Shown here piece by piece: positions 242 through 42,235 of a stretch of DNA of 49,130 nt. This DNA comes from an uncultured Candidatus Saccharibacteria bacterium (GTDB lineage Bacteria > Patescibacteriota > Doudnabacteria > UBA920): NCBI GenBank assembly GCA_964592725.1, contig CAZQFQ010000002.1:1-49130 (forward strand). Direction: 5' to 3'. The notes beneath the pieces were generated by a model. The model did no database searches, was not told the origin of the DNA, and was given only the letters and a program-made list of their open reading frames with translations. The stretch's first letter is position 1, and every line of letters starts with the position of its first letter. A program made the translations under genes and the position numbers.

Positions 242-243
242 AT

Positions 244-15284: not shown

Positions 15285-16226
15285 TTAAAATTTAATTATC
15301 GCCCTTAACTTTGCCGGCTTGCTTTTTGGGTTATGCGCTAATTCGTGCGAATTAGCCGTTACCGGTTTTTTTGTCAAAATTTTGCCTTTTGGATTTCGGC
15401 CGCACAAGCATTGGGGAAATTCCGGCGGACAAATACAGCCTTTGGTTAGTCCGACAAAAAACTGTTTGACGATTCTGTCTTCCAGAGAATGAAAGCTGAC
15501 GACAACCAGCCGTCCGCCGGGAACTAATAAATCAAAGGCTTTTGGCAAAAATTCGGAAAGATTTTCCAACTCATGATTCACTTCTATTCTTAATGCCTGG
15601 AATATTCTTCTGGCGCTGTCATCAGCTTTGTGCTTAACCGGCTTGGGCAGAGCTTCGACAATTATCTGATAAAGCTGATATGTGTGTTTTATTTCTATTT
15701 TATTTCCCCTATTTCTCAATATCCTTCTCGCAATTTGCTTAGAAAATTTCTCCTCGCCGTAATCTTCAAAAATTTTTACCAATCTCTTTTCGTCGTAATT
15801 ATTTAAAATAAACTTCGCGTCCAATTGTTGTGACAAGTCAAACCTCATATCCAGAGGCTGGTTGGTCTGAAAGCTTATTCCGCGGTGTTCCAATTCATAG
15901 GATGACAATCCCAAGTCCGCGACAATTCCATCCGGCGCCGGAAAATTATGATGTTTGATGATTTTATCAACGTGCGCAAAATTTCCCTGTTCAGTTATCA
16001 CCCTCTCCCTCTTGGAGAGGGTCAGGGTGAGGGTCTTAAAATTCTCAACCGCATCCTTATCCAAATCAATCGCCAACAATTTCCCGGTTTCACCAATTTC
16101 TTTTAATACCGCTGATGTATAACCACCTCCACCCAGCGTGGCGTCTACGATATTTTGACCCGGCTTAGGATCCAGGTATTCAAGAACTTCGTTCAGTAAT
16201 ACCGGAGTATGTTCATAATTTTGCAT
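15285..16226 (-). CDS. rsmH: 16S rRNA (cytosine1402-N4)-methyltransferase RsmH
   Basis: HTPVLLNEVLEYL, DATLGGGGYT, DLGLSSYELE and SFHSLEDRIVK. Confidence 0.9.
   Translation of the reverse strand: MQNYEHTPVLLNEVLEYLDPKPGQNIVDATLGGGGYTSAVLKEIGETGKLLAIDLDKDAVENFKTLTLTLSKRERVITEQGNFAHVDKIIKHHNFPAPDGIVADLGLSSYELEHRGISFQTNQPLDMRFDLSQQLDAKFILNNYDEKRLVKIFEDYGEEKFSKQIARRILRNRGNKIEIKHTYQLYQIIVEALPKPVKHKADDSARRIFQALRIEVNHELENLSEFLPKAFDLLVPGGRLVVVSFHSLEDRIVKQFFVGLTKGCICPPEFPQCLCGRNPKGKILTKKPVTANSHELAHNPKSKPAKLRAIIKF
15999..16035 (-). repeat. in-frame GGGAGAGGG-type palindromic element inside rsmH
   Basis: CACCCTCTCC-CTCTT-GGAGAGGG-TCAGGGTGAGGGTC, translated as ...KTLTLTLSKRERVITE... Confidence 0.75.
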
Positions 16227-16252
16227 TTAATTAATTTAAAAAGATTTTATAA

Positions 16253-16486
16253 TCAAATAGCATTGCAAAATTTTAGTAAAACCCATCTTATATGCCACTC
16301 CTCAAACCATACCCCTGTGTAATTGCAGGTAGCACTAAATGTAACATTTTGGTTTTGGGGCAAATCGTAATCACTCCAAAAAAATTTCAAACCAGAATCA
16401 GAAGCTTTAAGATAAATAACAGTCAATAATATTAAAGCTACCAAGACACCGACTACTGTCCAAAAAGTTTTAAATTTTTTATACAT
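16253..16486 (-). CDS. small hypothetical membrane protein
   Basis: 77-aa ORF with one TM helix, between mraZ and rsmH. No SD seen. Confidence 0.4.
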   Translation of the reverse strand: MYKKFKTFWTVVGVLVALILLTVIYLKASDSGLKFFWSDYDLPQNQNVTFSATCNYTGVWFEEWHIRWVLLKFCNAI

Positions 16487-16607
16487 TTAAATTCTTATTG
16501 AACGTTCGAGATGAACCCCTCCGATAACCTGGATTTAGACTTTTGCTTATTTCTGGATCCCGGATATTTTTTACGATTGATGATATGCTTTAGCGTAAAA
16601 AATTCCG

Positions 16608-16688
16608 GGATGACACAGCTGTGTCATTGCGAGGAGTGCATCCGACGAAGCAATCCCATTAAAGTTCGCTTCGGCTGCACTCGCGATG
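16608..16688. repeat. REP-like palindromes: TGACACAGCTGTGTCA plus GTCATTGCGAGGAGTGCATCCGACGAAGC...GCTTCGGCTGCACTCGCGATGAC
   Basis: Inverted arms read directly. The arms are related to the arms of the 128-nt element inside recJ (GTCATCCTGAGGGAGTGCATCCGA). Confidence 0.7.
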
Positions 16689-16697
16689 ACAGACAAG

Positions 16698-17129
16698 CTA
16701 AACTCCCAAGCTCCCCAACTGTTCCGCTATCTGGTTAGACGCCGCTTCCGTTTGCGCTTTGTACGCGGTCCACAATTCTTCGCTCCAAATTTCTATACGA
16801 TTGTATAAACCGGCTACAATTACTTTTTTGCTGATTTTGGCAAAAGTTTTTAAGTAACCGGGGATGATTATGCGGCCTTGTTTGTCTATTTCGCAATCCA
16901 TGGCGCCGGCCAGCATCAGCCGGGAAAAAGCGCGCGTGTTGGCGGTAGAAATTGGGAGACTAGCCAACTTGGTCGCGAGCTTTTTCCATTCTTCTAAACC
17001 ATATAAAAACAGTGAATTATCCAACCCTCTGGTAACAACAACTTTTGATTTCAAACTCGGGCGAAACTTGGCCGGAATGGAAATTCTGCCTTTGTCGTCA
17101 ATGCTTGCCTGATATTCGCCGATGAACAT
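16698..17129 (-). CDS. mraZ: transcriptional regulator MraZ
   Basis: 143 aa. Duplicated halves carry DDKGRISIP and DKQGRIIIP. Confidence 0.9.
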   Translation of the reverse strand: MFIGEYQASIDDKGRISIPAKFRPSLKSKVVVTRGLDNSLFLYGLEEWKKLATKLASLPISTANTRAFSRLMLAGAMDCEIDKQGRIIIPGYLKTFAKISKKVIVAGLYNRIEIWSEELWTAYKAQTEAASNQIAEQLGSLGV

Positions 17130-17133
17130 ATAT

Positions 17134-17251
17134 TCACAGATACACTGATGGGAACAGATGCCACAGATTCTAAACTACGGCAACTGTCTAATTAGTAAAT
17201 GATTTTTGATCTCAAAAACTGTGCCGTCTGTGTTATCCGTGTATCTGTGGA
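17134..17251 (-). repeat. unique long hairpin occupying most of the mraZ 5' UTR
   Basis: CACAGATACAC...GTGTATCTGTG outer stem, with further imperfect pairing built from CACAG/CTGTG words. Confidence 0.6.
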
Positions 17252-17273
17252 CAATAAAATATCCACAGGACTT

Positions 17274-17298
17274 CCCACGTAACCCCACTTTTATCCAC
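17274..17298 (-). promoter_or_regulatory. putative MraZ operator: three GTGG(G/A) direct repeats at 10-bp spacing
   Basis: Minus strand reads aaGTGGAtaaaaGTGGGgttacGTGGGaa. On the plus strand, CCAC falls at 17275, 17285 and 17295. Sits immediately downstream of the -10 box. Confidence 0.55.
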
Positions 17299-17317
17299 TT
17301 TTTACCATTGTTACTAC

Positions 17318-17346
17318 ATTATATACCACAAAAACCCATAAGTCAA
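17318..17346 (-). promoter_or_regulatory. near-consensus sigma70-type promoter for mraZ (TTGACT-17 nt-TATAAT)
   Basis: The minus strand reads TTGACTtatgggtttttgtggtaTATAAT. Confidence 0.65.
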
Positions 17347-17365
17347 AGCCTATAAAACTCCGTCA

Positions 17366-17396
17366 AACAATAAAAATACCCCTTAAACAAGGAGTA
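17366..17396 (-). terminator. intrinsic terminator ending the upstream (trmH-side) transcription unit
   Basis: The minus strand reads TACTCCTT-GTTT-AAGGGGTA followed by TTTTTATTGTTT. Confidence 0.65.
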
Positions 17397-17504
17397 TTTT
17401 AATATTATTTAAATACTATCTAAGCTATATCCACAAGTATAAAAAATAAAAAAAACTTTATCGGATTTCCACTTATTACATCATAATTTAGCGGTTTCCC
17501 AAAA

Positions 17505-18008: not shown

Positions 18009-18025
18009 TAAAAAAATTGTGCGGA

Positions 18026-18851: not shown

Positions 18852-18856
18852 AAAAG

Positions 18857-18958
18857 AAATCGAATCTACGAATTAGACGAATCTGCGAAGGACAACGAAT
18901 GAACGAATTCAGCAATTCGTAGTTATTCGTTGATTCGTTCCGTTCGTAGATTCGATTT
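18857..18958. repeat. A-family palindromic element, copy A2
   Basis: Fills the whole spacer between the stop of 18961-19344 and the ATG of 18432-18851. Confidence 0.85.
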
Positions 18959-18960
18959 AT

Positions 18961-19344
18961 TTAAGTGAGCTTGACCGAACGCGCCAAAACGTCTTTTACT
19001 TTTTGGATAATATCGTCAACCGACTGGTCGGATTTCAGCAAATAATCCACAGCCCCGGCTTCCACAATCTTACTAATAGTTTCCACATCGCCGATGTTGG
19101 TCAAAACTACCACCGGAACTTTAGCCGTGGAAGGATTGGCTTTAAGCTCCCAAAGTACGGAAATGCCGTCCAACTTAGGCATCATAATGTCCAAAAGCAG
19201 CAAATCCGGCACTACTTCCTTGGCCTTTGCCACTGACTCTTCCCCGTCATAAGCCGGAGTAGGCTCAAATCCTGCTGTTTTGAGGGCCTCACATAGTGAA
19301 TTAGAGATAAGTTTGTCGTCTTCGGCCACTAAAATTTTTGGCAT
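18961..19344 (-). CDS. single-domain response regulator (CheY-like receiver)
   Basis: PKILVAEDDKLISN...LLLLDIMMPKLDGISVLWELK. Confidence 0.85.
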   Translation of the reverse strand: MPKILVAEDDKLISNSLCEALKTAGFEPTPAYDGEESVAKAKEVVPDLLLLDIMMPKLDGISVLWELKANPSTAKVPVVVLTNIGDVETISKIVEAGAVDYLLKSDQSVDDIIQKVKDVLARSVKLT

Positions 19345-19362: not shown

Positions 19363-19446
19363 CTTTACTAACTACTAATCTTTACTAATATACTAAAGCA
19401 CGATATCGAGAATTAGTATATTAGTACCGATTCGTAGTTAGTAAAG
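19363..19446. repeat. unique hairpin built from TACTAA/TTAGTA words
   Basis: CTTTACTAACTAC-7 nt-TACTAATATACTAA ... TTAGTATATTAGTA-7 nt-GTAGTTAGTAAAG, giving 13 + 14 bp of pairing. Lies between the kinase stop and the receiver start. Confidence 0.75.
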
Positions 19447-21154: not shown

Positions 21155-21251
21155 ATAGAAGCGAAGCCAAACGCGAAGTCTGCAACGCGAACCTAAACGC
21201 GAATTCACGGCTTTTTCGCGTCGCTGTATTCGCGTCTTCCTTCGCTTCTAT
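21155..21251. repeat. unique hairpin built from CGCGAA/TTCGCG words
   Basis: ATAGAAGCGAAG...ACGCGAA...TTCGCGT...CTTCGCTTCTAT. Fills the spacer between 21254-21517 and the kinase ATG. Confidence 0.75.
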
Positions 21252-21915: not shown

Positions 21916-24900
21916 CTACGGCACCTCGTTAATGGTCGGACTGCTTTTGCCCGTACCAAAAGTCAGCCAGGGCGTGGATACGCCTGTCAGGATTGTTGTA
22001 CCGCCGGAATATACGCTAAAACTGTTCTGGAAACGGCTTTGGCTCTGGGTAACGGTGCCAGAAACCGCAAGCTGGGCAGTATAAGTGATATCAGCTATCG
22101 CGCCGACGGCAATGTTGTCCTGGCTGCTGGTAAGATTAAAGACAAGGGTTTGATCCGGCGAAGTGCCATAAGCACAATAATGGTTAGTGCCTGAAGGCGT
22201 GCAGGAACTGCCGGGATTAGCGCCGTCATAATGAAGAGTAACCGGCGAAGAACCGCCGTCGGTATATATGGCACTCCATCCCGCGGACGGCATCTGCAAA
22301 TTTGCCATTGTATCCGTAACCGTAATGTTACTGGTTGTGGCGGTGCCGTTGTCGTTGCAAAGATTAATCTGGAAGCCAATATTATCGCCGGCATTCATGG
22401 CTGCGCCGGCCGGCAGCGGGTCTGTATATCCGTCGCAGGCGCTAGCCCCGGAAACCGCCGTTCCGTTTATGGAAACAATATCTTTATCCGAATCGCCTAA
22501 GTTAGCCGAACAGGCAAGCGGAACCACGGGATTTTGACTACCCGCAGTCGGGCTGGTTTCCACGCCGCCGCTACTGACACCGGTAACCCAATAGTTGTAA
22601 GGCTGGCCTACGGTGGCCGTTGTGTCTGTATAAGTGGTTGTACCGGCGGGTATGGCGGTACTGTTAAGCTTGGAAGCGCCGCTAAAACTACTGCCGGTAC
22701 TGCGGTAAACATTGTAACTGTCCCCGCTTATAGGCGTCCAGCTTAGGCCAATTTGTCCGCAGGTGGCGGTATTATTTAAAGTTACGGTGGCGGGGCCGGA
22801 GCCGCCGCTGCATGAATTTGCGGAAACGCCGCCGGAAAAATTATTACTCGCCGCCACCAAAGTTCCGGTGCCTACGCCGCCACTGGTGCTTTCCACCCAG
22901 TAGTAATAAGGACCGCCGCTTACGTAATTGGTATAGGTTTGGTTTCCGATGTTGCCGTTTATTGGGGACTGGTTGCTCACAATTTTGGTCGCGCTGCTGC
23001 TGACGTTAATCGTATTGCGATAGACGTTGTAGCCGCTAGCGTTGCTGCCCGGCGTCCAGGTAATAACCAGGGTCTGACACTGGGCTCCCGTGCCGGCCGA
23101 AACGGAAATATTGCTTGAACTGCCGCCTCCCGGAGGACCGGGGATCACAACATATGTCACCCCAAGAGTCTGGGGGTTATTAGAAGCGTTAGAATCGGAA
23201 ATCTTAATACTGCAATTGTTAAAGGTACCGACGTTGGAAGGCGAGGTTACCGAGACTGTGACGGTTGACGGGGTGCCGCTTACCGCAACTGTGCCGGAAG
23301 TAGGGCTGACACTGCACCAGGTTCCCGCGCCGGTTGAGGTGGCTGTCCAGTTTAAGGTAGCACTGCCGGTATTACTGATGGTAAGAGTCTGACCGCCAGG
23401 AGTAGCACTTCCGGAAACGCCGTTAAAGGTCATAGAGGATGGGGAAAGGGAAATGGTGGGTGAATAAGAACAGGTGTTTGGGGAAATGCCGCCGGTGGAG
23501 TTAGTGCTGGCCGGGACTTGAATTCCGCTTAAGCCGGCGGAAAGATTGTATGATTGTACCCAGTAAAAGTAAGTACCGAAGGAATTATTATCTGTATAGG
23601 TCTGGTTACCGACATTGCCGTTCTGAACAGACATATTGGTCTGAATTTCGGTAGCCGTGCTTGTGCTATTGCTGGTATTGCGATAAATGTTATAGCCGCC
23701 CGCTCCGCTTCCCGGGGTCCAGGTTAAAACCACGCCTTGTGCCGGGCAAGTAGCCTGGGCGTCGGTAACTGTATTACCGGGACCACCGTCTACTGTTCCG
23801 GGGATCACAACATATGCCACCCCAAGAGTCTGGGGGTTATTAGAAGCGTTAGAATCGGAAATCTTGATACTGCAATTGTTAAAGCTGCCGACGTTGGAAG
23901 GCGAGTTTACCGAGACTGTGACGGTTGACGGGGTGCCGCTTACCGCAACTGTGCCGGAAGTAGGGCTGACACTGCACCAGGTTCCCGCGCCGGTTGAGGT
24001 GGCTGTCCAGTTTAAGGTAGCACTGCCGGTATTACTGATGGTAAGAGTCTGACCGCCAGGAGTAGCACTTCCGGAAACGCCGTTAAAGGTCATAGAGGAT
24101 GGGGAAAGGGAGATTGTAGGCGCAGGAGGAGAACCTGCGTTAACGGTTATTTGCTTGGTGCACTCATCACTGGCAATTGGTTGAAACCAAGTTACTCCCT
24201 CTTGCAACATATCCCAGTCAAATTTGTAAGTGCCGGGCGTAGAAGGAGCTGTTGCCGTGTAAACAAAGACCGCGTTGGCGCCGGGAGCAACGGTATTTGA
24301 AGGCAATTCTACCCGGCCAAATCCCCATGTGCTGTTATCCTGGGGATCCTGGGCGCCTAACCTGTAAGGTTGGGCGGAATCAACATTCACGCTTTTCCAA
24401 GTGTCGCTACCGGTGTTTTCCATAGTAGTGGTAGCGGAAAATTGCTGGCCGACGTAGACAGAAGACGGCGCGACTATGCTGACGCACGCGTCTTGGTGGG
24501 GGGTGGAAGCGGAACATTCAGATGGAAGCCAGACCCAGTTGCTACAACTCCCGCTGGAAGGGCCTGACTGGTTACCTGTTTCGCAACTGCCGCCGGAGTC
24601 TGTGCACCAGCCGCAACTATACCCTGCGTCGTACGGCACAGCACCACTACAATCAGTACAGGAATCTGAATAAGCATTGCAGGGATCTGAAGAAGGAGGA
24701 GTTTGGCAAGTCCCGCCTTGGCAGGTCAGAGTGCCGGTGCAAGGGTTGCCCGAGCTGCAGCAAGCTTTTCCCAATGCGCCACAAGCCGAAGGGGAAGTTA
24801 CCGTAACGCTCGCGCTGGCTGAAGCGGAGCCTCCCGGGCCGGTAGCGGTGTAAGTAAAAGTATAAGTATAGCCGTCCTGGCAAGCAAGGGTAGCGAGATT

Positions 24901-25347
24901 GGGGAGACTTCCCGAAGGGCCGGTTATACTGGAAACCGAACCGTTGGTATTGGCAGGGCTACAGCCATCCGCTCCGCCGGGAGTAATCGTCATCTTCGTA
25001 CTGCCGCCGGTCGCGGCGGTGGAACTCCAAACATATGAAACAGTGCCTACTCCGCCCACAACCGTAGCGGAATTAGAACCATTAACGGTCAGCGAAGCGG
25101 TAGGAACGGGATTAACAACCAAGTTATTAGGAGGAACCAGAGTTAAAGTTAGTACTTGCGATTGTGTCGCCCCTGTGGAGTCTGTTCCTAATACTGTAAC
25201 CGTAACTGTTGTAGCCGTTGTAAACGGGTTAGGGACAACAATTGGAATATCCCCCGTATCGGCGGCTTTAGCCGCCGAACAAACCAGCATCCCGCCTAAA
25301 ATAAAGCAAAACGCCAGCAAATATTTAAATGATTTTTGTTTCGTCAT
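21916..25347 (-). CDS. giant secreted/cell-surface repeat protein (1143 aa)
   Basis: Signal peptide MTKQKSFKYLLAFCFILGGMLVCSAAKA. A Cys-rich knot, two near-identical Ig/BACON-like modules, three Y(N)(V/I)YR(N/S)T Fn3-like modules and a DUF11-like C-terminal region. No C-terminal anchor is present. Confidence 0.85.
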   Translation of the reverse strand: MTKQKSFKYLLAFCFILGGMLVCSAAKAADTGDIPIVVPNPFTTATTVTVTVLGTDSTGATQSQVLTLTLVPPNNLVVNPVPTASLTVNGSNSATVVGGVGTVSYVWSSTAATGGSTKMTITPGGADGCSPANTNGSVSSITGPSGSLPNLATLACQDGYTYTFTYTATGPGGSASASASVTVTSPSACGALGKACCSSGNPCTGTLTCQGGTCQTPPSSDPCNAYSDSCTDCSGAVPYDAGYSCGWCTDSGGSCETGNQSGPSSGSCSNWVWLPSECSASTPHQDACVSIVAPSSVYVGQQFSATTTMENTGSDTWKSVNVDSAQPYRLGAQDPQDNSTWGFGRVELPSNTVAPGANAVFVYTATAPSTPGTYKFDWDMLQEGVTWFQPIASDECTKQITVNAGSPPAPTISLSPSSMTFNGVSGSATPGGQTLTISNTGSATLNWTATSTGAGTWCSVSPTSGTVAVSGTPSTVTVSVNSPSNVGSFNNCSIKISDSNASNNPQTLGVAYVVIPGTVDGGPGNTVTDAQATCPAQGVVLTWTPGSGAGGYNIYRNTSNSTSTATEIQTNMSVQNGNVGNQTYTDNNSFGTYFYWVQSYNLSAGLSGIQVPASTNSTGGISPNTCSYSPTISLSPSSMTFNGVSGSATPGGQTLTISNTGSATLNWTATSTGAGTWCSVSPTSGTVAVSGTPSTVTVSVTSPSNVGTFNNCSIKISDSNASNNPQTLGVTYVVIPGPPGGGSSSNISVSAGTGAQCQTLVITWTPGSNASGYNVYRNTINVSSSATKIVSNQSPINGNIGNQTYTNYVSGGPYYYWVESTSGGVGTGTLVAASNNFSGGVSANSCSGGSGPATVTLNNTATCGQIGLSWTPISGDSYNVYRSTGSSFSGASKLNSTAIPAGTTTYTDTTATVGQPYNYWVTGVSSGGVETSPTAGSQNPVVPLACSANLGDSDKDIVSINGTAVSGASACDGYTDPLPAGAAMNAGDNIGFQINLCNDNGTATTSNITVTDTMANLQMPSAGWSAIYTDGGSSPVTLHYDGANPGSSCTPSGTNHYCAYGTSPDQTLVFNLTSSQDNIAVGAIADITYTAQLAVSGTVTQSQSRFQNSFSVYSGGTTILTGVSTPWLTFGTGKSSPTINEVP
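23141..23460 (-). repeat. intragenic ~320-bp repeat, copy 1
   Basis: Almost identical to 23801-24120, with about 6 substitutions outside the last ~15 nt. Confidence 0.9.
23801..24120 (-). repeat. intragenic ~320-bp repeat, copy 2 (660-bp offset)
   Basis: See copy 1. Encodes PTISLSPSSMTFNGVSGSATPGGQTLTISNTGSATLNWTATSTGAGTWCSVSPTSGTVAVSGTPSTVTVSV... Confidence 0.9.
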
Positions 25348-29187: not shown

Positions 29188-30528
29188 CTATAACTCCTTT
29201 ACCCTCCCAAACCCGATGGAATCGCTAAAGGCTTTGCCGGCCGGGAGCATTTGCGCGCGGAGGATGGTAAACTCGCCGTATTTATTGTTGATTTTGTCCA
29301 GGGCTAAAAGCAGGCGTTTTTGGCGTTCCGCGTCGCCGAACAAACTTAATTGGTTTTCGTGCAGTCTCAACCCGGCTACCGTAACGCCGATGAGTTTGGT
29401 ACCCTCCGTAGGGGAGGGTTTCAAACCCTCCCCTACGCCGCCTGTCATCATCTTCTCGCATTCCAAAAATATCTCCCGTCCATCCTGCAAAAAATATCCC
29501 AGCTTAATACTCTTACCAAACCCTTCATAATTTTTATCGTGGCAATAAAAATGAATAACATTCCCCATCAGCCCTTTTTTGCGCAAACGCCGGCCGACCA
29601 TTTCGCACAATTTATACAGCACGGGCATAAAAAATTCCGGCTTGCGAAATTCCACGGGCAAAGTATACATATGCCCCATTGATTTTATCTCTTGTTCCTG
29701 ATGAACGAGCTCTTTCCAGGTTCCCTCAAGTTGCCCGATGTTATACAAATGATGCCCCATAATATTGCCAAACCGGCTGACCAAATGGCTTTTGGGATAA
29801 TCCCGCAAATCCTTGAGCGTGCGGATGCCGAGCGCGTTTAAATTTTTTTCCTGCCTCCGGCCGATGCCCGGGATGTCTATCAACCGCAATTGATCGTACA
29901 ATTGATTTTTAATCAAAATGTCGCAATTGCCATCGCCGTAGGGGCGGGTTTGAAACCCGCCCCTACAATGGCCATAAGGCAAGATCACAACAAGTCCATC
30001 CGGCTTTTTCATATCCGACCCGATTTTGGCGAGCAGTTTATTTTCCGCGATGCCGATACTGCACCTTAGCCAGTCCCCGACCTCGGTTTTAAACCGCCGC
30101 TTAATTTCTTGCGCGATGCTTACGGCTTCTTCAAAGGGGTCTACCAGCTGATATGCTGATAAGCTGATCAGCTGATCAGCTGTCCTGACATTACACGCCT
30201 TGGTCAAATCCGCGAACACCTCGTCTATGCTGTAAACTTCCACCGCTGATGTGTAGTCGGACACCACCTTGACCATCAACCGATTAAAATGCCGGTAACG
30301 CTCCGGCCGCGTGGGCGTAAGAATAATTTTCGGGTAAAGTTTTACGGCTTCCCAAACCGGCGTGCCGGTTTTAACGCCCCATTTTTTTGCCTCCACGCTG
30401 GCCGCGATTATTATGCCGCCCAAATGCTCGCACACGCCTAAGGGCTTGCCGCGCCAGGCTAAATTATCCTGCTGTTCAACAGAGGCAAAGTAGCTGTTCA
30501 TATCAAGATGCATAATAACGGTCTGCAT
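29188..30528 (-). CDS. dinB: DNA polymerase IV (Y-family)
   Basis: Start set at ATG 30528 (MQTVIMHLDMNSYFASVEQ). IDEVFADLT and SIGIAENKLLAKIGSDMKKPDGL. The track's N-terminal extension is a translation of the leader hairpin. Confidence 0.9.
   Translation of the reverse strand: MQTVIMHLDMNSYFASVEQQDNLAWRGKPLGVCEHLGGIIIAASVEAKKWGVKTGTPVWEAVKLYPKIILTPTRPERYRHFNRLMVKVVSDYTSAVEVYSIDEVFADLTKACNVRTADQLISLSAYQLVDPFEEAVSIAQEIKRRFKTEVGDWLRCSIGIAENKLLAKIGSDMKKPDGLVVILPYGHCRGGFQTRPYGDGNCDILIKNQLYDQLRLIDIPGIGRRQEKNLNALGIRTLKDLRDYPKSHLVSRFGNIMGHHLYNIGQLEGTWKELVHQEQEIKSMGHMYTLPVEFRKPEFFMPVLYKLCEMVGRRLRKKGLMGNVIHFYCHDKNYEGFGKSIKLGYFLQDGREIFLECEKMMTGGVGEGLKPSPTEGTKLIGVTVAGLRLHENQLSLFGDAERQKRLLLALDKINNKYGEFTILRAQMLPAGKAFSDSIGFGRVKEL
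29407..29437 (-). repeat. in-frame perfect palindrome CGTAGGGGAGGGTTT-C-AAACCCTCCCCTACG inside dinB
   Basis: 15-bp arms, translated as GGVGEGLKPSPTEG. Confidence 0.8.
29938..29966 (-). repeat. in-frame perfect palindrome GTAGGGGCGGGTTT-G-AAACCCGCCCCTAC inside dinB
   Basis: 14-bp arms, translated in a different frame as CRGGFQTRPYG. Differs from 29407-29437 by a compensated A/T to C/G change in the arms. Confidence 0.8.
30145..30183 (-). repeat. in-frame tandem 8-mer / palindromic tract (NAGCTGAT)x4-5 inside dinB
   Basis: CAGCTGATATGCTGATAAGCTGATCAGCTGATCAGCTG, translated as TADQLISLSAYQLV. Confidence 0.7.
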
Positions 30529-30604
30529 ATCCTTTATCCTTAATCCCTTATCCTTTACCACTGCATGCGATCAAGGATGAAAGATAAAAGATTAAGGATA
30601 ATTC
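30529..30604 (-). promoter_or_regulatory. dinB 5' UTR consisting of one hairpin that pairs AAGGAU (SD-like) words with AUCCUU words
   Basis: 12 perfect bp, then about 14 more. Four C.A mismatches on the plus strand become G.U pairs in minus-strand RNA. The hairpin ends at the start codon. Confidence 0.5.
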
Positions 30605-35061: not shown

Positions 35062-35064
35062 AAT

Positions 35065-35165
35065 AAATCGAATCTGCGAATTAGACGAATCTACGAATGA
35101 CTACGAATTAACGAATTCGTACTTCGTAGGGATTCGTTGATTCGTTCCATTCGTAGATTCGATTT
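35065..35165. repeat. A-family palindromic element, copy A3
   Basis: Spans from about the predicted mreB transcription start to 4 nt before the mreB ATG. Has a central ACGAATTCGT. Confidence 0.85.
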
Positions 35166-35170
35166 ATTGA

Positions 35171-35199
35171 ATTATAGCAACATAACGGCATTGAAACAA
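35171..35199 (-). promoter_or_regulatory. mreB promoter (TTGTTT-17-TGcTATAAT)
   Basis: The minus strand reads TTGTTTcaatgccgttatgtTGcTATAAT. Confidence 0.5.
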
Positions 35200-35227: not shown

Positions 35228-36628
35228 ATGACCCAAAGAACCCGCTATTTGCTAATTCTTGCCGGCTTTGTGTTTTTTTTAATGGCCGCTCCGCTGATGG
35301 TGCTGTACGTCCGCGGCATAACTTACGACTTTGCCACTAAAACTTTTGTAAAAACCGGAATTATGGGCGTTAGGACCAGTCCGTCCGACGCGACCGTTTT
35401 TATAAACGGAAAGGTTAAACGCCAAAGCCAGGGCGACATCGGGTTTTTAGTTCCCGGCGCGTACCAGGTGGAAATAAAAAAAACCGGCTACTCGGACTGG
35501 AGCAAACGGCTGAATGTGGACGCGGGCCAGGTAACCTGGGCCAACCCTTCTTTTGGCAGTATTTATTTATTTTTAAAAAACCCTCCGGCGCAAAATCTGG
35601 CGCAGGGGGTTTTGGATTTTTACAGCCAAAACGGAAACTTAGTTTATCTTACGCCGCAGAGCGCCGTCGTCGCCGCTTCCGATAATTTATCCTCGCGGCA
35701 AGTCTATCCCCTGCCCAAAAATGTCACCGAAATTTTGACCGAGGATGCCTCGGGTCAAAATTTCATTTTATCAAACAATTCGGCCGCGACTTCAACTCCC
35801 GAATTTTTGGTATTTAATAAAACGTCCGGCACATTTATCGATATAAGTTCCCTTTTCCCGAATGCCGTTAACCCCGTTAGGGAACCGTCGGCGGTAAACA
35901 GTAACCATCTCCAAAATAATTTACAATCAATGCCGGCTTCGTCAGCGGCATCCTCTAACGGGGTTAAGTTTCAATTCGGCTCAAACGGGGAGCTTTATGC
36001 TTTAAGCGATAATTTTTTATATTCGGTTGACTTGGAAAATAAAATTAAAACCGCCATTTTTAACGGCGTGAGATCTTTTTATTTCCAGGGCGGAGAATTA
36101 TATTACATTCAACAGACCGGGCAAAGCTACGGGCTTTTTGACAGCCAGGCGCCTTTTAGCCAAAACCAGCTTCTGGTGGCCGGCCTGCCCGACTTTGATT
36201 CGGGCGATTTGTTTGTAACTCTTGAAAAGGAAGTTTTTTTGCTGGCGGACAATAAACTTTATTTAGTAAGCTCCAATATGCGGCAGATTTCCGACAACAT
36301 TTCCATCTTTAATTTTGACCCGAACAGCTCTCTTATATCGCTAATCCAGTCCGGGGAATTTGATTACTACGATCCGGTCGGAATGAATTTAAATTTTGTT
36401 ACCCGCAGCAGCGAAACTTTGGCCAATCCGCGCGTGCTAACCGGCATCGGCAACGCCTTTTTCCTGCAAGACGAAAAGCTTATGGTCATAGAGCTTGACG
36501 CGCGCGACAACCAAAACCAGTACCAGCTTTATCAGGGAGCCAATGTTAAAAAGTTTTTTGTGGACGGCGCGGGAAAAAATGTTCTGCTTTTGGACAACGG
36601 GGAGTTAAAAAGTTTGGTTGTTAGATAA
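35228..36628 (+). CDS. PEGA-domain membrane-anchored protein
   Basis: N-terminal TM helix. PEGA-like TSPSDATVFINGKVKR...VPGAYQVEIKKTGYSDWSKRLNV. Confidence 0.8.
   Translation: MTQRTRYLLILAGFVFFLMAAPLMVLYVRGITYDFATKTFVKTGIMGVRTSPSDATVFINGKVKRQSQGDIGFLVPGAYQVEIKKTGYSDWSKRLNVDAGQVTWANPSFGSIYLFLKNPPAQNLAQGVLDFYSQNGNLVYLTPQSAVVAASDNLSSRQVYPLPKNVTEILTEDASGQNFILSNNSAATSTPEFLVFNKTSGTFIDISSLFPNAVNPVREPSAVNSNHLQNNLQSMPASSAASSNGVKFQFGSNGELYALSDNFLYSVDLENKIKTAIFNGVRSFYFQGGELYYIQQTGQSYGLFDSQAPFSQNQLLVAGLPDFDSGDLFVTLEKEVFLLADNKLYLVSSNMRQISDNISIFNFDPNSSLISLIQSGEFDYYDPVGMNLNFVTRSSETLANPRVLTGIGNAFFLQDEKLMVIELDARDNQNQYQLYQGANVKKFFVDGAGKNVLLLDNGELKSLVVR
35868..35967 (+). repeat. ~100-nt inverted-repeat element inside the PEGA-domain CDS
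   Basis: TTAACCCCGTTAG (35868-35880) and CTAACGGGGTTAA (35955-35967) are perfect 13-bp inverted arms. The region is translated as ...NAVNPVREPSAVNSNHLQNNLQSMPASSAASSNGVKF... Confidence 0.65.
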
Positions 36629-36648: not shown

Positions 36649-37098
36649 CTATGCCGCTTCGTCTATGACCTGATTAACCAATTTGTCCGCTTCCTTATTT
36701 TGTTCCCTTGGAACGTGATGAAATGTCACGTTTTTAAATTGGTTGCGGAGTTTTAAAACTTCCGCGGCCAACAGCTTAAGCGTCGGTTCTTTTATTTTAT
36801 ATTGGCCAATCATTTGGCGCACAACAAGTTCGCTGTCCATGCGGATCTCGAGGTCAACTTTATTCCCCTCTCCCTTTGGGAGAGGGGTCAGGGGTGAGGG
36901 TTTTTTCGATAATTCCCTAGCCTTCTCCAACGCTAAAATCAGCGCCTTGTATTCGGCCACGTTATTTGTCGCCTCGCCGATGTATTGCTTATATTCGCCG
37001 ATGATTTGGTTATCATCAGCGCGAATAACCACGCCAATCCCCGCCGGCCCGGGATTTCCCCTGGCCCCGCCGTCTGTATTTATAATTAGTTTTGACAT
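36649..37098 (-). CDS. rnhA: ribonuclease HI
   Basis: INTDGGARGNPGPAGIG, NNVAEYKALILAL, MDSELVV and HVPREQNKEADKLVNQ. Confidence 0.85.
   Translation of the reverse strand: MSKLIINTDGGARGNPGPAGIGVVIRADDNQIIGEYKQYIGEATNNVAEYKALILALEKARELSKKPSPLTPLPKGEGNKVDLEIRMDSELVVRQMIGQYKIKEPTLKLLAAEVLKLRNQFKNVTFHHVPREQNKEADKLVNQVIDEAA
36865..36902 (-). repeat. in-frame GGGAGAGGG-type palindromic element inside rnhA
   Basis: CCCCTCTCCC-TTT-GGGAGAGGGG-TCAGGGGTGAGGGTT, translated as KKPSPLTPLPKGEGNKV. Confidence 0.8.
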
Positions 37099-37159: not shown

Positions 37160-39148
37160 CTAATCCGATTTTCTAACATCAATAACCCTCAATTTTACCC
37201 CTTCCCTTCCGTTCCAATTGTCCGCGATAAGTTCCGCAGCTACGTCTACAGTATCGCCGATTTTTAAACTTTTGGCAAAATCCGGGGCGTTAAACATAAT
37301 TCCGGATATTTCCTGGCCGCCTCCACCACCTACGGCGTCATCCTGAGGGAGTGCATCCGACCGGCTTGTCCGCCGAAGCTTTAGCGAAGGTGGAAGGATC
37401 CCTTTATCCGCAATCTGAGATTCTTCCCCCTCGCTCGGATGCACTCGCTCGGGGTCAGAATGACGCCGGAAAAACGATACAAACTTTATCTGCAAATGCT
37501 GATTTTGCTTGCCGACCATGCGCACCGATGATACTTGGAGGTTAGGAATCAAAAATTTGGGCGTAACATTATCCACCCCAAAAGGTTCTAGCCGAAGCAA
37601 CAATTGACAATTAACGATTGACAATTGACCGGGGGACAACTCCGCTTCCAGCTCCAAAACTTTTTGCGACTTTTCATTATTTATATTTTCCTCGGCGTAT
37701 ACCAGAAGCTTCTGGTAAAAAAGCTCAAATTGATCGGCTTGCAAACTCAATCCCGCGGCTTGCTTGTGGCCGCCGAATTTGGACAAATGTGCGGAAGAAA
37801 ATTTCAACGCCTCCAACATATTAAACTCGCCGGCTGTCCTGGCCGATCCTGTGCACAAGTTTTCCGTCCTCTCCAAAACAATGGTCGGCTTATAAAATTC
37901 CTCGGCCAGTTTTCCCGCCACCAAACCCATTATGCCTTTTGGCCAGCCCTCGCCCACCAACGCCAAAACTTTTCGCTCTTTAAGCAGTAAAACTTTTTCT
38001 TTGGCTTCGCTCAAAACCGAGGCCGTCAGTCCCTGCCGCCGCGCGTTTATAGCTTCCAGATTGCGGGCTTTTTCTTGCGCCTGATGAAGGTCTGTTTCCA
38101 TCAACAAATTCAAAGCAATCCCGGCGTGCTCCAGCCGTCCGGCGGCGTTTAAGCGAGGCGCTATAATAAAGCCAAGTGTATAAGTATCAAGCTTAACGAG
38201 GGTAACCCTCGGAGCCCGAGGGTTACCCTCGTTAATTAACCCGGCTGATTCCATCAAGGCGCGAAGGCCAATCCATTTAGTTTTAGCCAATACCTGCAAG
38301 CCATATTTTACCAATATGCGATTTTCGCCAAGCAGGCTGTGGCAGTCGGCCACGGTGCCAATAGCTACGAGATCCAGGAGCCATTTTTCCCAGCCTTTAA
38401 TTCCCTGCTGCCTGTTGCCTACTGCCTTTCCCCTGCTCAATATTCCGCAAGCCAGCTTAAAAGCCACCCCAACCCCGGTAATTTCCCGGTACGGATAGCC
38501 GTCATCAGAATTTTTAGGATTTATCAGCGCGTAAGCTTTTGGAACTTCGCCGATAATTTCGTGGTGGTCGGTGATAATTAAATCTATTTGATTTGCTTTA
38601 CAAAATTCCGCGGCGTCAACGGAATTCGTCCCGCAGTCAACGGTAATGATTATCTTTGATCCTTCATCCTTTATCTTTTGTAATGCCTCAATATTGACTC
38701 CGTATCCTTCCGAAAAACGATCCGGAATATATGACGCCACTTCAACCCCTAAATATCTAAAAGTCTGCCCCAAAACAGCGTTGGCGGTTATGGCGTCGGC
38801 ATCGTAATCACCGTAAACGCAAATTTTTTCCCGGCTGTCTATTGCCTTCCAAATCCGCTCCACCGCTTTTTCCATATCCTGAAACAAAAACGGGCTGTGC
38901 AAGTTTTCGTATTTCGGCTCCAAAAAATCCTGAATCTGCTCTTTCTCAAGCAGCCCTCTATTATAAAGCAACTGCGCCAGCAATACCTGATCCCCCTCTC
39001 CCTTTGGAAGAGGGTCAGGGTGAGGGTTTGATGATAAAAAACCGATGATCTTTCCCTTAGCCTCCTCCGGCACCCCTGGTTTTAATTTCCAAATTTTTGC
39101 CATATACTCTATTTTATCAGTTAAAGTCAATAAAGTGTAGTCTATCAA
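37160..39148 (-). CDS. recJ: single-stranded-DNA-specific exonuclease RecJ
   Basis: VYGDYDADAIT, ITVDCGT, IITDHH and GGHKQAAG (DHH/DHHA1). An alternative start is ATG 39103. Confidence 0.9.
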   Translation of the reverse strand: MIDYTLLTLTDKIEYMAKIWKLKPGVPEEAKGKIIGFLSSNPHPDPLPKGEGDQVLLAQLLYNRGLLEKEQIQDFLEPKYENLHSPFLFQDMEKAVERIWKAIDSREKICVYGDYDADAITANAVLGQTFRYLGVEVASYIPDRFSEGYGVNIEALQKIKDEGSKIIITVDCGTNSVDAAEFCKANQIDLIITDHHEIIGEVPKAYALINPKNSDDGYPYREITGVGVAFKLACGILSRGKAVGNRQQGIKGWEKWLLDLVAIGTVADCHSLLGENRILVKYGLQVLAKTKWIGLRALMESAGLINEGNPRAPRVTLVKLDTYTLGFIIAPRLNAAGRLEHAGIALNLLMETDLHQAQEKARNLEAINARRQGLTASVLSEAKEKVLLLKERKVLALVGEGWPKGIMGLVAGKLAEEFYKPTIVLERTENLCTGSARTAGEFNMLEALKFSSAHLSKFGGHKQAAGLSLQADQFELFYQKLLVYAEENINNEKSQKVLELEAELSPGQLSIVNCQLLLRLEPFGVDNVTPKFLIPNLQVSSVRMVGKQNQHLQIKFVSFFRRHSDPERVHPSEGEESQIADKGILPPSLKLRRTSRSDALPQDDAVGGGGGQEISGIMFNAPDFAKSLKIGDTVDVAAELIADNWNGREGVKLRVIDVRKSD
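37337..37464 (-). repeat. ~128-nt REP-like inverted-repeat element inside the recJ 3' region
   Basis: The arms are GTCATCCTGAGGGAGTGCATCCGA and TCGGATGCACTCGCTCGGGGTCAGAATGAC. Translated as ...RRHSDPERVHPSEGEESQIADKGILPPSLKLRRTSRSDALPQDDAV... Confidence 0.75.
38195..38233 (-). repeat. in-frame perfect 18-3-18 palindrome inside recJ
   Basis: AACGAGGGTAACCCTCGG-AGC-CCGAGGGTTACCCTCGTT, translated as NEGNPRAPRVTLV. Confidence 0.8.
38992..39028 (-). repeat. in-frame GGGAGAGGG-type palindromic element inside the recJ 5' region
   Basis: CCCCCTCTCCC-TTT-GGAAGAGGG-TCAGGGTGAGGGTT, translated as NPHPDPLPKGEGDQ. Confidence 0.8.
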
Positions 39149-39167: not shown

Positions 39168-39218
39168 AATAAAAAAAATCCTTTTGCATTAACGTACTAG
39201 TACACTAATGCAAAAGGA
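39168..39218 (-). terminator. strong intrinsic terminator after gpmI
   Basis: 13-bp stem TCCTTTTGCATTA/TAATGCAAAAGGA. On the minus strand it is followed by T8. Confidence 0.8.
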
Positions 39219-39225
39219 ATGATAT

Positions 39226-40848
39226 TCATCTTCTCCTGGGCACCTCGTCCATTTCAGTAAAAAGACTGACGCCCGTCATTTCCACTGGCTTGGGCAAACC
39301 AAGAAGTTCTAAAATTGTCGGCGCCACGTCGGAAATCGCGCCGGCGGGGACAAAAGTGGATAAAAATTCGTAATTTATACCAACGGTTTTGGAAAATTTA
39401 AATTCATTGGCTATGAGCAAAAACGGCACGGGATTGGTGGTGTGGTCTTTGTCTATGTCGCCGGTTTTGGGATTTATCATCTGCTCGCAATTGCCGTGGT
39501 CGGCCGTAATTATCAGCGCGGCGTCGGCCATGAGGCACGCGTCCATAACTTTTTTTAAACACCGGTCCAAAAATTCCACGGCCTTTATGCCGGCAGTCAA
39601 ACTGCCGGTGTGTCCCACCATATCGGCGTTGGCAAAGTTGGCCGCAAAAAAATTGGTTTCCGTGGAAATTATTTTTTTTGTCAGAATATCCGTCAGTTTT
39701 TCCGCTGACATTTCCGGATGGTCAGCATAATTACGGCTGTTGTTTTCGGGACTGCTGATAATTTCCTGCTCCTCGCCCGGAAACTTTTCCGTCCGTCCGC
39801 AGTTAAAAAATGCCGTCACATGAGCGTATTTTTCGCTCTCGGCAATATGAAATTGGCTTAAATGACTTTGGGATATTACTTCGGCCAGATTATTTTTTAA
39901 ACTTATATGATCAAAGGCGACTTTCACGGGCAACTCCGGCGCGTATTCGGTCATAGTGGCAAAATACAAATTCTGCAGAGGTTTTTGCGGCCTAAATTCG
40001 GCCGGCAACGCATCCGGCTGAACAAAAGCCCGTGTAAGCTGGAGCGCGCGGTCGGAACGAAAATTTATAAAAATCACGGCGTCGTTATCGGAAATTTTGC
40101 CAACCGGCAAACCGCCTTCGTCAACAATAACCGTGGGCTTTATCATTTCGTCAAAAATTTGGGATTGATAACTTTTTTTTACCGCCTCTTCGGCCGAATG
40201 CGCGGTATCGCCCTTGCCGTAAACCAGCGCCTGATAAGTCATCAGCGTTTGCCCAAAATGGCCGCCTCTGTCCATTGAATAAAACCTGCCGGTGACTGTG
40301 GCCACTTTGCCAACGCCGGCTAATGAGATTCTTTCATTAAGCGTTTTTAAAGTTTCCGGCGCGATTTTCTGGTCAGTGTCCCGGCCGTCGGTAAACATAT
40401 GGATGTACACTTTTTTTTGCCCGTTGTTCGCGGCCATAGAAAGCAGGGCATACAGATGCTCATCAAAACTGTGTACGCCGCCCGGGCTGACAAGCCCCAT
40501 TAAATGCAAAGCCGAATGATTGTTTTTGGCGTGGTTTATGGCTTCCAAAAAAATCGGATTTTTAAAAAACTCCCCGCTTTGGATGGCGGCGGTTATGCGC
40601 GGCAAATCCTGGCCCACAATCCGTCCGGCTCCCAAATTTAAATGGCCTACTTCGCTGTTGCCCATTTCGCCCCAGGGCAAACCGACCAAAGGGCCGCTCG
40701 CCTGCAAAGTCAAAGAAGGAAAATTGCTGACAATAAAATTCAGGTTCGGAGTTTTGGCCCGCGAGATAGCATTACCAAAACCCTCCGGCGCTACGCCGAA
40801 GCCGTCTAAAATTATAAGTGTGACTTTTTTGTAAATTTTGTGTTTCAT
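39226..40848 (-). CDS. gpmI: 2,3-bisphosphoglycerate-independent phosphoglycerate mutase
   Basis: LIILDGFG, GEMGNSEVGHLNLGAGR and ADMVGHTG. 540 aa. Confidence 0.95.
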   Translation of the reverse strand: MKHKIYKKVTLIILDGFGVAPEGFGNAISRAKTPNLNFIVSNFPSLTLQASGPLVGLPWGEMGNSEVGHLNLGAGRIVGQDLPRITAAIQSGEFFKNPIFLEAINHAKNNHSALHLMGLVSPGGVHSFDEHLYALLSMAANNGQKKVYIHMFTDGRDTDQKIAPETLKTLNERISLAGVGKVATVTGRFYSMDRGGHFGQTLMTYQALVYGKGDTAHSAEEAVKKSYQSQIFDEMIKPTVIVDEGGLPVGKISDNDAVIFINFRSDRALQLTRAFVQPDALPAEFRPQKPLQNLYFATMTEYAPELPVKVAFDHISLKNNLAEVISQSHLSQFHIAESEKYAHVTAFFNCGRTEKFPGEEQEIISSPENNSRNYADHPEMSAEKLTDILTKKIISTETNFFAANFANADMVGHTGSLTAGIKAVEFLDRCLKKVMDACLMADAALIITADHGNCEQMINPKTGDIDKDHTTNPVPFLLIANEFKFSKTVGINYEFLSTFVPAGAISDVAPTILELLGLPKPVEMTGVSLFTEMDEVPRRR

Positions 40849-40853
40849 AAATA

Positions 40854-40954
40854 TGATACCAATATACTAAATATACGAATGATACCAATAATACTAATCT
40901 TGAGTAATCCGTATTATTAGTATCATCAGTATTTAAATTCGTATATTAGTATCA
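40854..40954. repeat. unique hairpin built from GATAC/AATA/TACTAA words in the eno-gpmI spacer
   Basis: TGATACCAATATA...GATACCAATAATAC pairs with GTATTATTAGTATC...TATATTAGTATCA. The C.A mismatches become G.U pairs on the minus (sense) strand. Confidence 0.65.
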
Positions 40955-42235
40955 TATAATTGCTTCTATCTCCAGCAACCGATTATATTTCGCCAACCGT
41001 TCCCCGCGACAAGGCGCGCCGGCTTTTATGTATTCCGCGTTCACAGCCACGGCCAGGTCGGCGATAAAATCATCTGATGTCTCCCCGCTTCTGTGCGAAA
41101 TGACGATTTTATATTTATTTTTTTGCGAAAGTCTAACGGCCGCCAAAGTTTCCGTTAGCGTGCCGATTTGGTTTAGTTTGATTAAAACCGCGTTGGCGAT
41201 TTTTTGGGTGATGCCCATTTGGATTCGTTGCGGATTGGTCACAAACAAATCGTCGCCGATGAGCAAAGTTTTATCGCCCAAATTTTGAGTTAAAAATTTC
41301 CAGCCCAACAAATCGTCCTGCGCGCAACCGTCTTCTATTGCCATAAGCGGATATTTGGCCAGCCATTTTTTGTAGACTTGATAAATGTTGGCCGACGTGG
41401 CGGACATTTTGCCGGCCTTGAATTCGTAAATGCCTTTTTTCTCGTTAAAAAACTCGCTGGATGCCGCGTCCAGTCCCAAAGCAAAATCCCTCCCTAGTTT
41501 ATATTTTGCCGATTTTATTGCGGCCTCAAGTTGTTTAAACGCGTCTTCATTGGAAGAAAGTTTTGGCGCGAACCCGCCCTCATCGCCTACCGAAGTTGCG
41601 AGCCCCTTAGCCGCGAGTTGCGATTTTAACGCGTGATACACTTCCGCGCCCATTCTTAGCTTATTGGCAAAATTTCCCCTAAGCGGAACAAGGAAAAACT
41701 CCTGCACATCCAAACCGCTGTCCGCGTGCACCCCGCCGTTTATAACATTAAAAAACGGGGTCGGTATTTTATACGCTTCCCTCCCCCTCTGGGGGAGGGT
41801 CAGGGAGAGGGTTTCATCGTCTGGCAAATACATCCCCCTCAAATACTCAAAAAGCTCCCTTTTTTGGCATTTTGCGGCCAGCCTGGCCGAAGCGAGCGAA
41901 ACCGATAAAATGGCGTTCGCGCCAAGTTTGGCCTTATTGTCCGTGCCGTCCAGCTCTATCATCATTTCGTCAATTTTTTGCTGATCCCCGCAAGATATCC
42001 CCTTAACAGCCTTAAATATCTTTTCTTCCACATTCCGGCAAGCCTTAAGCACGCCCTTACCGCCATACCGCTTTTTATCCCCATCCCGGAGCTCCAAAGC
42101 CTCATGCACCCCGGTAGAAGCCCCGCTGGGCACGCTGGCCTTAGCGCTAATATCTCCCGCCCAAACCGTGGTCTCCACCGTCGGATTTCCCCTACTATCC
42201 AACACCTCCAAAGCCCTAATTTTTGTTATCTTCAT
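40952..42235 (-). CDS. eno: enolase
   Basis: ITKIRALEVLDSRGNPTVETTVW, SVPSGASTGVHEALELRDGD and ISHRSGETSD. Confidence 0.95.
   Translation of the reverse strand: MKITKIRALEVLDSRGNPTVETTVWAGDISAKASVPSGASTGVHEALELRDGDKKRYGGKGVLKACRNVEEKIFKAVKGISCGDQQKIDEMMIELDGTDNKAKLGANAILSVSLASARLAAKCQKRELFEYLRGMYLPDDETLSLTLPQRGREAYKIPTPFFNVINGGVHADSGLDVQEFFLVPLRGNFANKLRMGAEVYHALKSQLAAKGLATSVGDEGGFAPKLSSNEDAFKQLEAAIKSAKYKLGRDFALGLDAASSEFFNEKKGIYEFKAGKMSATSANIYQVYKKWLAKYPLMAIEDGCAQDDLLGWKFLTQNLGDKTLLIGDDLFVTNPQRIQMGITQKIANAVLIKLNQIGTLTETLAAVRLSQKNKYKIVISHRSGETSDDFIADLAVAVNAEYIKAGAPCRGERLAKYNRLLEIEAII
41779..41812 (-). repeat. in-frame GGGAGAGGG-type palindromic element inside eno
   Basis: CCCTCCCCC-TCT-GGGGGAGGG-TCAGGGAGAGGGT, translated as DDETLSLTLPQRGREAY just before the conserved P.P..NViNGG segment. 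Confidence 0.8.

Follow-up and report, generated by a model that had tools for sequence, protein, structure and literature searches.

GC-rich palindromic repeats in frame within conserved genes of a Doudnabacteria-like bacterium

Ten GC-rich palindromic segments lie in frame within six conserved genes (rsmH, dinB, a PEGA-domain gene, rnhA, recJ and eno) of a 49,130-nt stretch of contig CAZQFQ010000002.1 (assembly GCA_964592725.1), hereafter the window, from an uncultured bacterium of the Doudnabacteria. A preliminary description of this DNA had reported these segments, and both inspection of the sequence and the Pfam assignments that back all six host genes bear it out. Judged by their sequences, the segments are members of several families of GC-rich structure-forming repeats, namely a triplex motif (Family 1), a palindrome resembling the GTAG-tagged repetitive extragenic palindromes (REPs; Family 2), elements of 80-134 nt resembling transposable elements of the miniature inverted-repeat type (MITEs; Family 3) and two single palindromes; Family 1 is the already described BoxC/PIT/TMECO intrastrand triplex motif, which is cosmopolitan and not private to this genome. 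Comparison with orthologous genes supports the view that the segments are lineage-specific in-frame insertions rather than ancestral sequence, and the explanation that we regard as probable is that structured DNA repeats colonised the coding DNA of a gene-dense genome, selection having retained the in-frame copies that fell in tolerant loops.

The survey covered the window and about 100 kb of the corresponding loci of relatives, in particular four relatives in all of which synteny is conserved (L003, L006, L007 and L008); for each protein set the 120 closest orthologues were compared. The window is also contained in the JGI metagenome contig Ga0455670_0004723 (59.6 kb). The closest named relatives of the enolase, RsmH and DinB of the window are Candidatus Doudnabacteria and other Patescibacteria (candidate phyla radiation, CPR). 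The GC content of the window is 37-53%, a background against which the GC-rich elements stand out. As had been stated previously, the reading frames are open: every insert keeps the frame and is free of stop codons. The host genes are intact, with the enolase retaining 79 of 79 invariant alignment columns. Folded as RNA, all of the elements are more stable than shuffled controls (z from -1.7 to -7.6; for Family 1 the folding covered the hairpin part only), and a search of the window with Rfam at gathering thresholds gave only a tRNA and a LOOT RNA, with none at the GC-rich elements.

Repeat families in the window

Family 1 copies were found in rsmH, rnhA, recJ and eno at the places where they had been described (Table 1). 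A relaxed three-block motif search returned four matches in the window, which are exactly the genic copies, and no match in 200 dinucleotide-preserving shuffles; the 15-mer tail of the motif gave five matches in the window against 0.46 expected. A degenerate fifth copy is intergenic, and Family 1 is therefore not exclusively genic. The stems vary between copies and yet remain complementary (CCCTCTCC/GGAGAGGG, CCCCTCTCCC/GGGAGAGGGG and CCCTCCCCC/GGGGGAGGG), the one mismatch in the recJ stem being a G-U pair on the mRNA strand. All four genic copies point the same way with respect to the host gene, and the same DNA is translated in two frames, as P-x-P-L-P-K-G-E-G in rnhA and recJ and as T-L-T-L-T-L-S-K-R-E-R in rsmH and eno; on these points too the preliminary description was accurate. 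The third frame of the C-rich strand holds a TGA or TAA stop (TGA in the window copies), so that only the two open frames are used, and the C-rich strand is the sense strand in seven of seven genic Family 1 copies when the window and the relatives are taken together. The G-rich strand, GGGAGAGGGTCAGGGTGAGGG, has four G3 tracts separated by three-base spacers.

Table 1. Palindromic elements of the window, with their host genes and encoded peptides.
Element	Location	Coordinates	Strand	Details
Family 1 copy	rsmH (15285-16226, minus)	16001-16033	-	Motif match; TLTLTLSKRER, residues 65-75
Family 1 copy	rnhA (36649-37098, minus)	36866-36900	-	Motif match; peptide PSPLTPLPKGEG
Family 1 copy	recJ, near N-terminus (37160-39148, minus)	38992-39026	-	Motif match; peptide NPHPDPLPKGEG
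51-nt insert	eno (40952-42235, minus)	41777-41827	-	Residues 137-153, LPDDETLSLTLPQRGRE
Family 1 motif proper	within the eno insert	41779-41811	-	Motif match
Family 1, degenerate fifth copy	between convergent genes	12643-12675	+	CCACTCCCTAACCCTCCCCTCAGAAGGGGAGGG; orientation opposite to the four genic copies
Family 2 perfect palindrome	dinB (29188-30561, minus)	29407-29437		CGTAGGGGAGGGTTTCAAACCCTCCCCTACG; peptide GVGEGLKPSPTE; RNA fold z = -3.7
Family 2 copy	dinB	29938-29966		GTAGGGGCGGGTTTGAAACCCGCCCCTAC; peptide CRGGFQTRPYG; RNA fold z = -6.0
Octamer tandem with palindromic words	dinB, hot spot A	30142-30182		CAGCTGAT...; weakest of the ten
Family 3 nested palindrome, 134 nt	recJ, OB domain	37334-37467		Terminal inverted repeats GGCGTCATYCTGA / TCAGRATGACGCC; peptide RRHSDPERVHPSEGEES...SLKLRRTSRSDALPQDDA
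MITE-like 100-nt element	PEGA-domain gene (35228-36628, plus)	35868-35967		Terminal inverted repeats TTAACCCCGTTAG / CTAACGGGGTTAA; z = -4.3
43-nt perfect palindrome	recJ	38193-38235		20-bp stem; peptide NEGNPRAPRVTLV; RNA fold z = -7.6

The TMECO consensus is CCCTCNCCC N3-6 GGGNGAGGG N3 GGGNGAGGG (Holder et al., 2015; PMC4666352). The eno copy fits exactly, without the one mismatch that was allowed; rsmH and recJ each depart from block 2 at one position, with recJ having the N3-6 first loop if the blocks are set on the inner register, and in rnhA the motif takes the form of a version with 10-nt blocks. The three non-exact copies deviate by no more than one change in a block, or by one to two bases in spacing. 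The occurrences recorded in 262 proteobacterial genomes number 3610, and the motif adopts a triplex structure in vitro, while in E. coli K-12 it is always intergenic and has no known function (PMC4666352); sequence of the type seen in the window has also been discussed as a quadruplex-hairpin switch (preprint 10.1101/032615). Besides the near-identical sequence, the likeness comprises the same three-block architecture, a dispersed multi-copy distribution (four to five copies in 49 kb, and related copies in the relatives) and the occurrence of inverted dimers (in the rsmH of P0133). The difference is that the motif was catalogued in proteobacteria and cyanobacteria, whereas here four of five copies are inside open reading frames (ORFs) of conserved CPR genes, and that loop 2 reads TCA and not TTA or CCG. 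It should be noted that an exclusively intergenic location describes one species and does not define the family.

A pan-bacterial scan with a 20-nt degenerate pattern, on one genome per species, gave matches which, among those listed, span more than 10 phyla (Planctomycetota, Chloroflexota, Acidobacteriota, Nitrospirota, Cyanobacteria, Elusimicrobiota, Patescibacteria and others), the proteobacterial ones among them falling in the Alpha-, Beta- and Gammaproteobacteria and in deltaproteobacterial lineages. Almost all of the matches listed consist of the leader block, a 3-nt loop and then the hairpin, and in 98 of the 131 matches listed the leader is followed by a perfect hairpin of 7 bp or more. 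Most of the Family 1 copies among the matches listed are extragenic; long stop-free stretches in GC-rich matches are an unreliable sign of a genic location. A related 41-mer, taken from an Enterobacteriaceae match, is present in all 5426 of 5426 complete E. coli genomes at a median of 19 places, and the E. coli example that was inspected is intergenic. A few copies of Families 1 and 2 were seen in very long open frames of non-CPR genomes or of metagenome contigs (L017, L029, L090, L196 and L240), as in a metagenome-assembled genome of Devosia where the frame exceeds 1100 codons, and in-frame copies may not be confined to the CPR.

The remaining palindromes had been counted as three in dinB, two more in recJ and one in the PEGA-domain gene. 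All of them are real, with the reservation that the dinB segment at hot spot A, an octamer tandem, is the weaker one. Family 2 has two copies in the window, both in dinB, where the same perfect palindrome of 29-31 nt stands in opposite orientations as judged by the flank. With its GTAG tag and a stem of 13-14 bp, GTAGGGGCGGGTTTGAAACCCGCCCCTAC agrees with the definition of GTAG-tagged REPs, which are palindromes of 20-40 bp having GTAG at one end and a stem of 6-13 bp (Di Nocera et al., 2013; PMC3733652). A metagenome scan for the exact Family 2 pattern found it to be widespread, the matches listed lying on contigs of 36-73% GC and mostly outside long open frames; no relevant paper came out of a literature search on the Family 2 sequence. 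Terminal inverted repeats of 13 nt mark Family 3, of which the window, L006 and L007 together contain eight copies (80-134 nt); those of 80-100 nt in the two relatives are both intergenic and genic (in frame in recJ and dinB). The PEGA element, with perfect 13-bp terminal inverted repeats flanking 74 nt, is a single copy among the loci compared, its sole match elsewhere (L001) being the same contig.

Occupied and empty sites in orthologous genes

The claim that the inserts interrupt conserved sequence holds for eno, rnhA, recJ, the PEGA-domain gene and dinB, whose closest orthologues are without them, and fails for rsmH, where there is no net insertion. Each insert is the minority state, a given one being carried by 3-10 of the 120 closest orthologues. 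The density of the elements had been called unusual; it looks instead typical for the clade as far as the window and the loci of the relatives show. In enolase the site reads ...LYGYxxKxLPTP... in nearly all of the 120 closest orthologues, the window has 17 extra residues there, and the closest of the orthologues (P0002, 92% identical outside the site) has an empty site, LYGYQIKGLPTP as against MYLPDDETLSLTLPQRGREAYKIPTP in the window. Four of the 120 closest orthologues have a related insert; of the three other insert-bearing enolases one carries three tandem hairpins (P0004) and one a nested extra hairpin. The stems do not differ between the three orthologous eno copies, in which the loops and leader vary. 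A separate observation on the enolases is that P0007, P0010, P0014, P0025, P0029, P0036 and others have similar N-terminal extensions (MSRGAGSxSAGK, MSAKGGSASGGK), which probably arose because gene callers ran through a conserved repeat upstream.

In rnhA the insert amounts to 15 amino acids and is missing from the L006 and L007 orthologues, with L008 having at this site a short, decayed-looking remnant, SPTPL. The 32-amino-acid PEGA insert is missing from all three relatives that have the gene (L006, L007 and L008). In rsmH the motif fills a loop which is hypervariable across the clade and brings no net gain in length (313 amino acids, against 310-312 in most orthologues). An alignment of RsmH with PDB structures had hinted at almost no insertion, which the orthologue set explains by a hypervariable loop of constant length. 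At the DNA level the rsmH site of relatives holds the motif in the frame TLTPTLSQRER, in the frame NPHSDPLPKGEG or as an inverted dimer. In another rsmH (P0123; L250, 699-1664) a tandem of about four AAATTTC heptanucleotides stands directly upstream of the triplex motif; it encodes FQISNFK, a peptide that many CPR RsmH proteins have at this site, and shifts the reading frame of the motif.

Five variable sites were found in recJ, and their occupants differ between relatives. L006 and L008 lack the N-terminal Family 1 copy, L007 has a degenerate one, and in L003 the copy contains a nested extra element; L003 and L006 have a Family 1 copy at a different recJ site, which in the window is without one. 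The Family 3 element is missing from the recJ of L003 and L008. At the codon position of the 43-nt palindrome, L003 and L006 have different perfect palindromes and L007 and L008 have none. Three hypervariable hot spots are seen across the 120 dinB orthologues, two of the palindromes falling in spots that are mostly empty in the orthologues. Hot spot A is hypervariable in 35 of the 120, Family 2 peptides occur at the same dinB site in a few of them, and at the site of the second Family 2 copy of Table 1 the L006 orthologue is without eight residues.

Mapping on solved or predicted structures, which the preliminary description had proposed, agrees with a location in loops for the eno, rsmH, rnhA, recJ and dinB sites. 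AlphaFold2 models were made with the orthologue alignments (mean pLDDT, the predicted local distance difference test, of 94.5 for enolase and 90.8 for RsmH). In the enolase model the sole stretch with pLDDT below 50 is residues 140-151. It lies inside the insert, in a coil that follows helix H128-136, precedes the next strand and is situated where the N-terminal domain gives way to the barrel. The motif residues of RsmH form a helix end and coil in which pLDDT dips to 73-81. Homologues in the PDB are gapped at the rnhA, recJ and dinB sites, with an 11-amino-acid gap at the rnhA insert for RNase H and another of 11 amino acids at the 43-nt palindrome for RecJ. The inserts appear to be translated as extra surface loops.

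Turnover and origin of the elements

Loop 2 of Family 1, read on the C-rich strand, is TGA in four of four genic window copies as against 24% among the scan copies listed, and is TAA in the orthologous eno copies of two relatives. The shared base points to a genome-specific subfamily, which may have arisen by amplification or homogenisation within the genome. In L003 the same secondary element, CCTGCACCAGTCGTC...CTCCGGTGCAGGGCAAGC, is found in loop 2 of the Family 1 copies of both eno (10001-11323) and recJ (13156-15138), the one in recJ holding another nested piece, and a further element occupies the hairpin loop of a third Family 1 copy. That the motif acts as a landing pad is indicated by the repeated insertion at the same internal position in L003. 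Three relatives have three different perfect palindromes at recJ site 4, and copies in decay were seen in the recJ of L007 and the rnhA of L008.

The explanation that we favour builds on features observed directly, that is family identity, presence or absence at sites, frame, orientation, loop location and nesting. Repeats that are intergenic in most bacteria would have entered the coding DNA of a Doudnabacteria-like genome that is gene-dense and moderately AT-rich, where selection would spare those copies that add a multiple of three bases, in a stop-free frame, within permissive surface loops. The resulting peptides, short loops rich in P/G/E or in T/L/S/R, would be incidental products of the DNA, and this accounts for the use of two frames by one sequence. 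An occupied loop would then become a landing pad for further elements, and the hot spots therefore hold different, tandem or nested elements in close relatives. That the element is a DNA-level entity is suggested by the two frames in the window, the two frames together with the inverted dimer at one rsmH site, and the eno stems that stay identical as the loops vary. We infer that C-rich mRNA is favoured, a G-rich strand in the mRNA being expected to form a quadruplex or purine triplex; insertion or copying may be directed by structure (a single-strand hairpin) and carried out in trans by an enzyme encoded outside the window, this being our preferred guess.

Several points weigh against this explanation. 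Comparison of filled and empty sites in eno, rnhA, the PEGA-domain gene and recJ gave no convincing target-site duplications or clean boundaries, and no Y1/RAYT transposase was found among the scanned ORFs of the window. The E. coli motif has been described as unlinked to mobile elements (Holder et al., 2015; PMC4666352). The orientation bias derives from about five independent events, translation is inferred from the intact frames alone, and the survey is limited to 49 kb plus about 100 kb of relatives. The four insert-bearing enolases share the flanking residues L-x-D-D-x-T, plus an R three residues upstream, and yet do not group in a simple neighbour-joining tree, where loss, recombination and tree error are inseparable. 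Monophyly of the insert-bearing enolases finds no support in this tree, which was computed without the insert and scatters them, and independent insertions are not claimed given the shared flanking residues.

A related reading, possible though doubtful, is that BoxC/TMECO and other cosmopolitan palindromes are active, structure-targeting mobile DNA dependent on some enzyme; if this were true, the CPR coding sites would be the first datable record of gains and losses, genome-specific amplification and landing-pad use. An origin in situ, by which template switching (quasi-palindrome correction) would turn the DNA of hypervariable loops into perfect palindromes, draws on the long, equally perfect and mutually different palindromes at one codon position of recJ site 4, on the lack of target-site duplications at the sites compared, and on the PEGA and 43-nt recJ palindromes, which have no other copy among the loci compared. 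Template switching may account for such singleton perfect palindromes, but as a general explanation it is unlikely: Families 1, 2 and 3 are near-identical at unrelated loci, in unrelated genes and phyla, which local template switching cannot yield, and the four genic window copies have a subfamily-specific base in common. We also think it quite improbable that the hairpins or triplexes are selected for an action on mRNA or DNA, such as pausing, mRNA stability, recombination or mutational hot spots. The stems retained in orthologous eno copies with variable loops, two stem mismatches that are G-U pairs on the mRNA strand, the RNA folds that surpass those of shuffled sequences and the association of the motif with local genome instability in E. 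coli (PMC4666352) would suit such a role; the inserts are, however, sporadic among close orthologues and decay in two of the relatives, and earlier work found no promoter, terminator or in vivo polymerase-blocking activity for the E. coli motif (PMC4666352).

The position in surface loops of intact host genes might be taken to mean that the peptides themselves are adaptive, as linkers or interaction sites, which we consider very improbable since one DNA yields unrelated peptides in two frames and is inverted at the same site in orthologues, since in most other bacteria this DNA lies between genes, and since the confidence of the enolase model falls below 50 in the insert. Errors of assembly or sequencing, which GC-rich hairpins can provoke, are barely credible as the source of similar inserts that recur at identical sites in assemblies made independently (JGI, ENA, NCBI and Logan), with all reading frames open. 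Introns or translational bypass were ruled out because every insert keeps the frame without a stop, and diversification by a diversity-generating retroelement because the sequence pattern is wrong.

The transposase search of the window ORFs returned only a partial IS110-family domain (8634-9389) and a serine recombinase (9495-10844), both in an unrelated island of lower GC (1-11116; 38% in the first 2 kb) that ends at a tRNA-Gln (11042-11116) and looks like an integrated element. The island also encodes two N6/N4 DNA methylases, one of them fused to ParB-N, and contains the Rfam LOOT RNA (RF03000; 6325-6449), which at 63 bits is above the gathering score. A palindrome family distinct from the GC-rich elements is represented by intergenic palindromes of about 115 nt with two arms of about 50 nt and CGAAT-type words (15180-15294, 18854-18964, 35062-35176 and 47361-47475), four related copies that directly adjoin gene ends, 35078-35171 and 47358-47451 being 99% complementary; further palindromes of the CGAAT type are at 19363-19446 and 21155-21251. 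Inverted repeats of 51 nt (48485-48535 and 48906-48956) flank a 122-amino-acid gene (48532-48900) in the segment 48485-48956, and the corresponding gene on the JGI record of the contig (Ga0455670_0004723) has the Pfam domain 23S_rRNA_IVP of the Avd-like family. A Ser/Thr/Gly-rich protein of 1143 amino acids (21916-25347) contains an internal duplication of 300 nt (23138-23437 and 23798-24097, 98% identical, at a spacing of 660 nt). Small GIY-YIG ORFs stand among the glycolysis genes of L006 (4467-4715 and 7160-7453) and L008 (4106-4396 and 5987-6274) and are missing at the corresponding places in the window.

Relation to known coding palindromes

The Rickettsia palindromic elements (RPEs) had been named as the precedent, and the analogy is fair in that palindromes are inserted in frame into intact ORFs of a small genome, the genes being left functional, and in that Family 3 and the PEGA element are similar in size to RPEs. 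RPEs are nevertheless restricted to Rickettsia and probably unrelated in sequence, being set apart by their host and by the match of the present elements to other named families, and the commonest elements here are much shorter (33-45 nt) and come from cosmopolitan families. For the elements of 30-40 nt a closer precedent is provided by the intragenic REPs, GTAG- or CGTC-tagged palindromes of 20-40 nt which lie within ORFs, add about 10-30 residues and are in many cases found in genes of DNA replication and repair (Di Nocera et al., 2013; PMC3733652). Family 2 shares with them the initial GTAG and the palindromes within ORFs; the differences are that no RAYT or REPtron was seen in the window, that the host is a CPR bacterium, and that several families unrelated to one another share the same loops, where they are also nested. 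REPs typically reach a high copy number in a genome and usually have a RAYT associated with them (a REPtron).

Compact organellar genomes offer a further parallel. The GC clusters and byps of yeast mitochondria are GC-rich hairpins that invade the coding DNA of an AT-rich compact genome. Coding palindromes in the mitochondria of Nematomorpha are likewise GC-rich hairpins in an AT-rich compact genome (PMC6649704). Some of the organellar palindromes are bypassed by the ribosome, whereas the inserts described here keep the frame and have no stops, which points to translation. The literature searched held no relevant report of in-frame palindromic repeats in CPR or Patescibacteria, nor did it describe the triplex motif within conserved genes, its translation in two frames or nested multi-family hot spots in CPR genomes. 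The present case places a selfish or neutral repeat of a known kind in a setting that is new, and does not amount to a new kind of system.

This setting ties the unexplained BoxC/PIT/TMECO repeat of E. coli to the phenomenon known from RPEs and intragenic REPs, and shows a motif that is evidently tolerated within essential genes. Coding sites have empty alleles that can be aligned, so that gain, loss, nesting and orientation bias become measurable, which is hard in intergenic DNA. The repeats explain many of the odd loops rich in P/G/E or in T/L/S/R, and the length differences, of CPR proteins, and they carry a warning for the annotation of CPR genomes, namely that such segments are derived from repeats and are not functional motifs.

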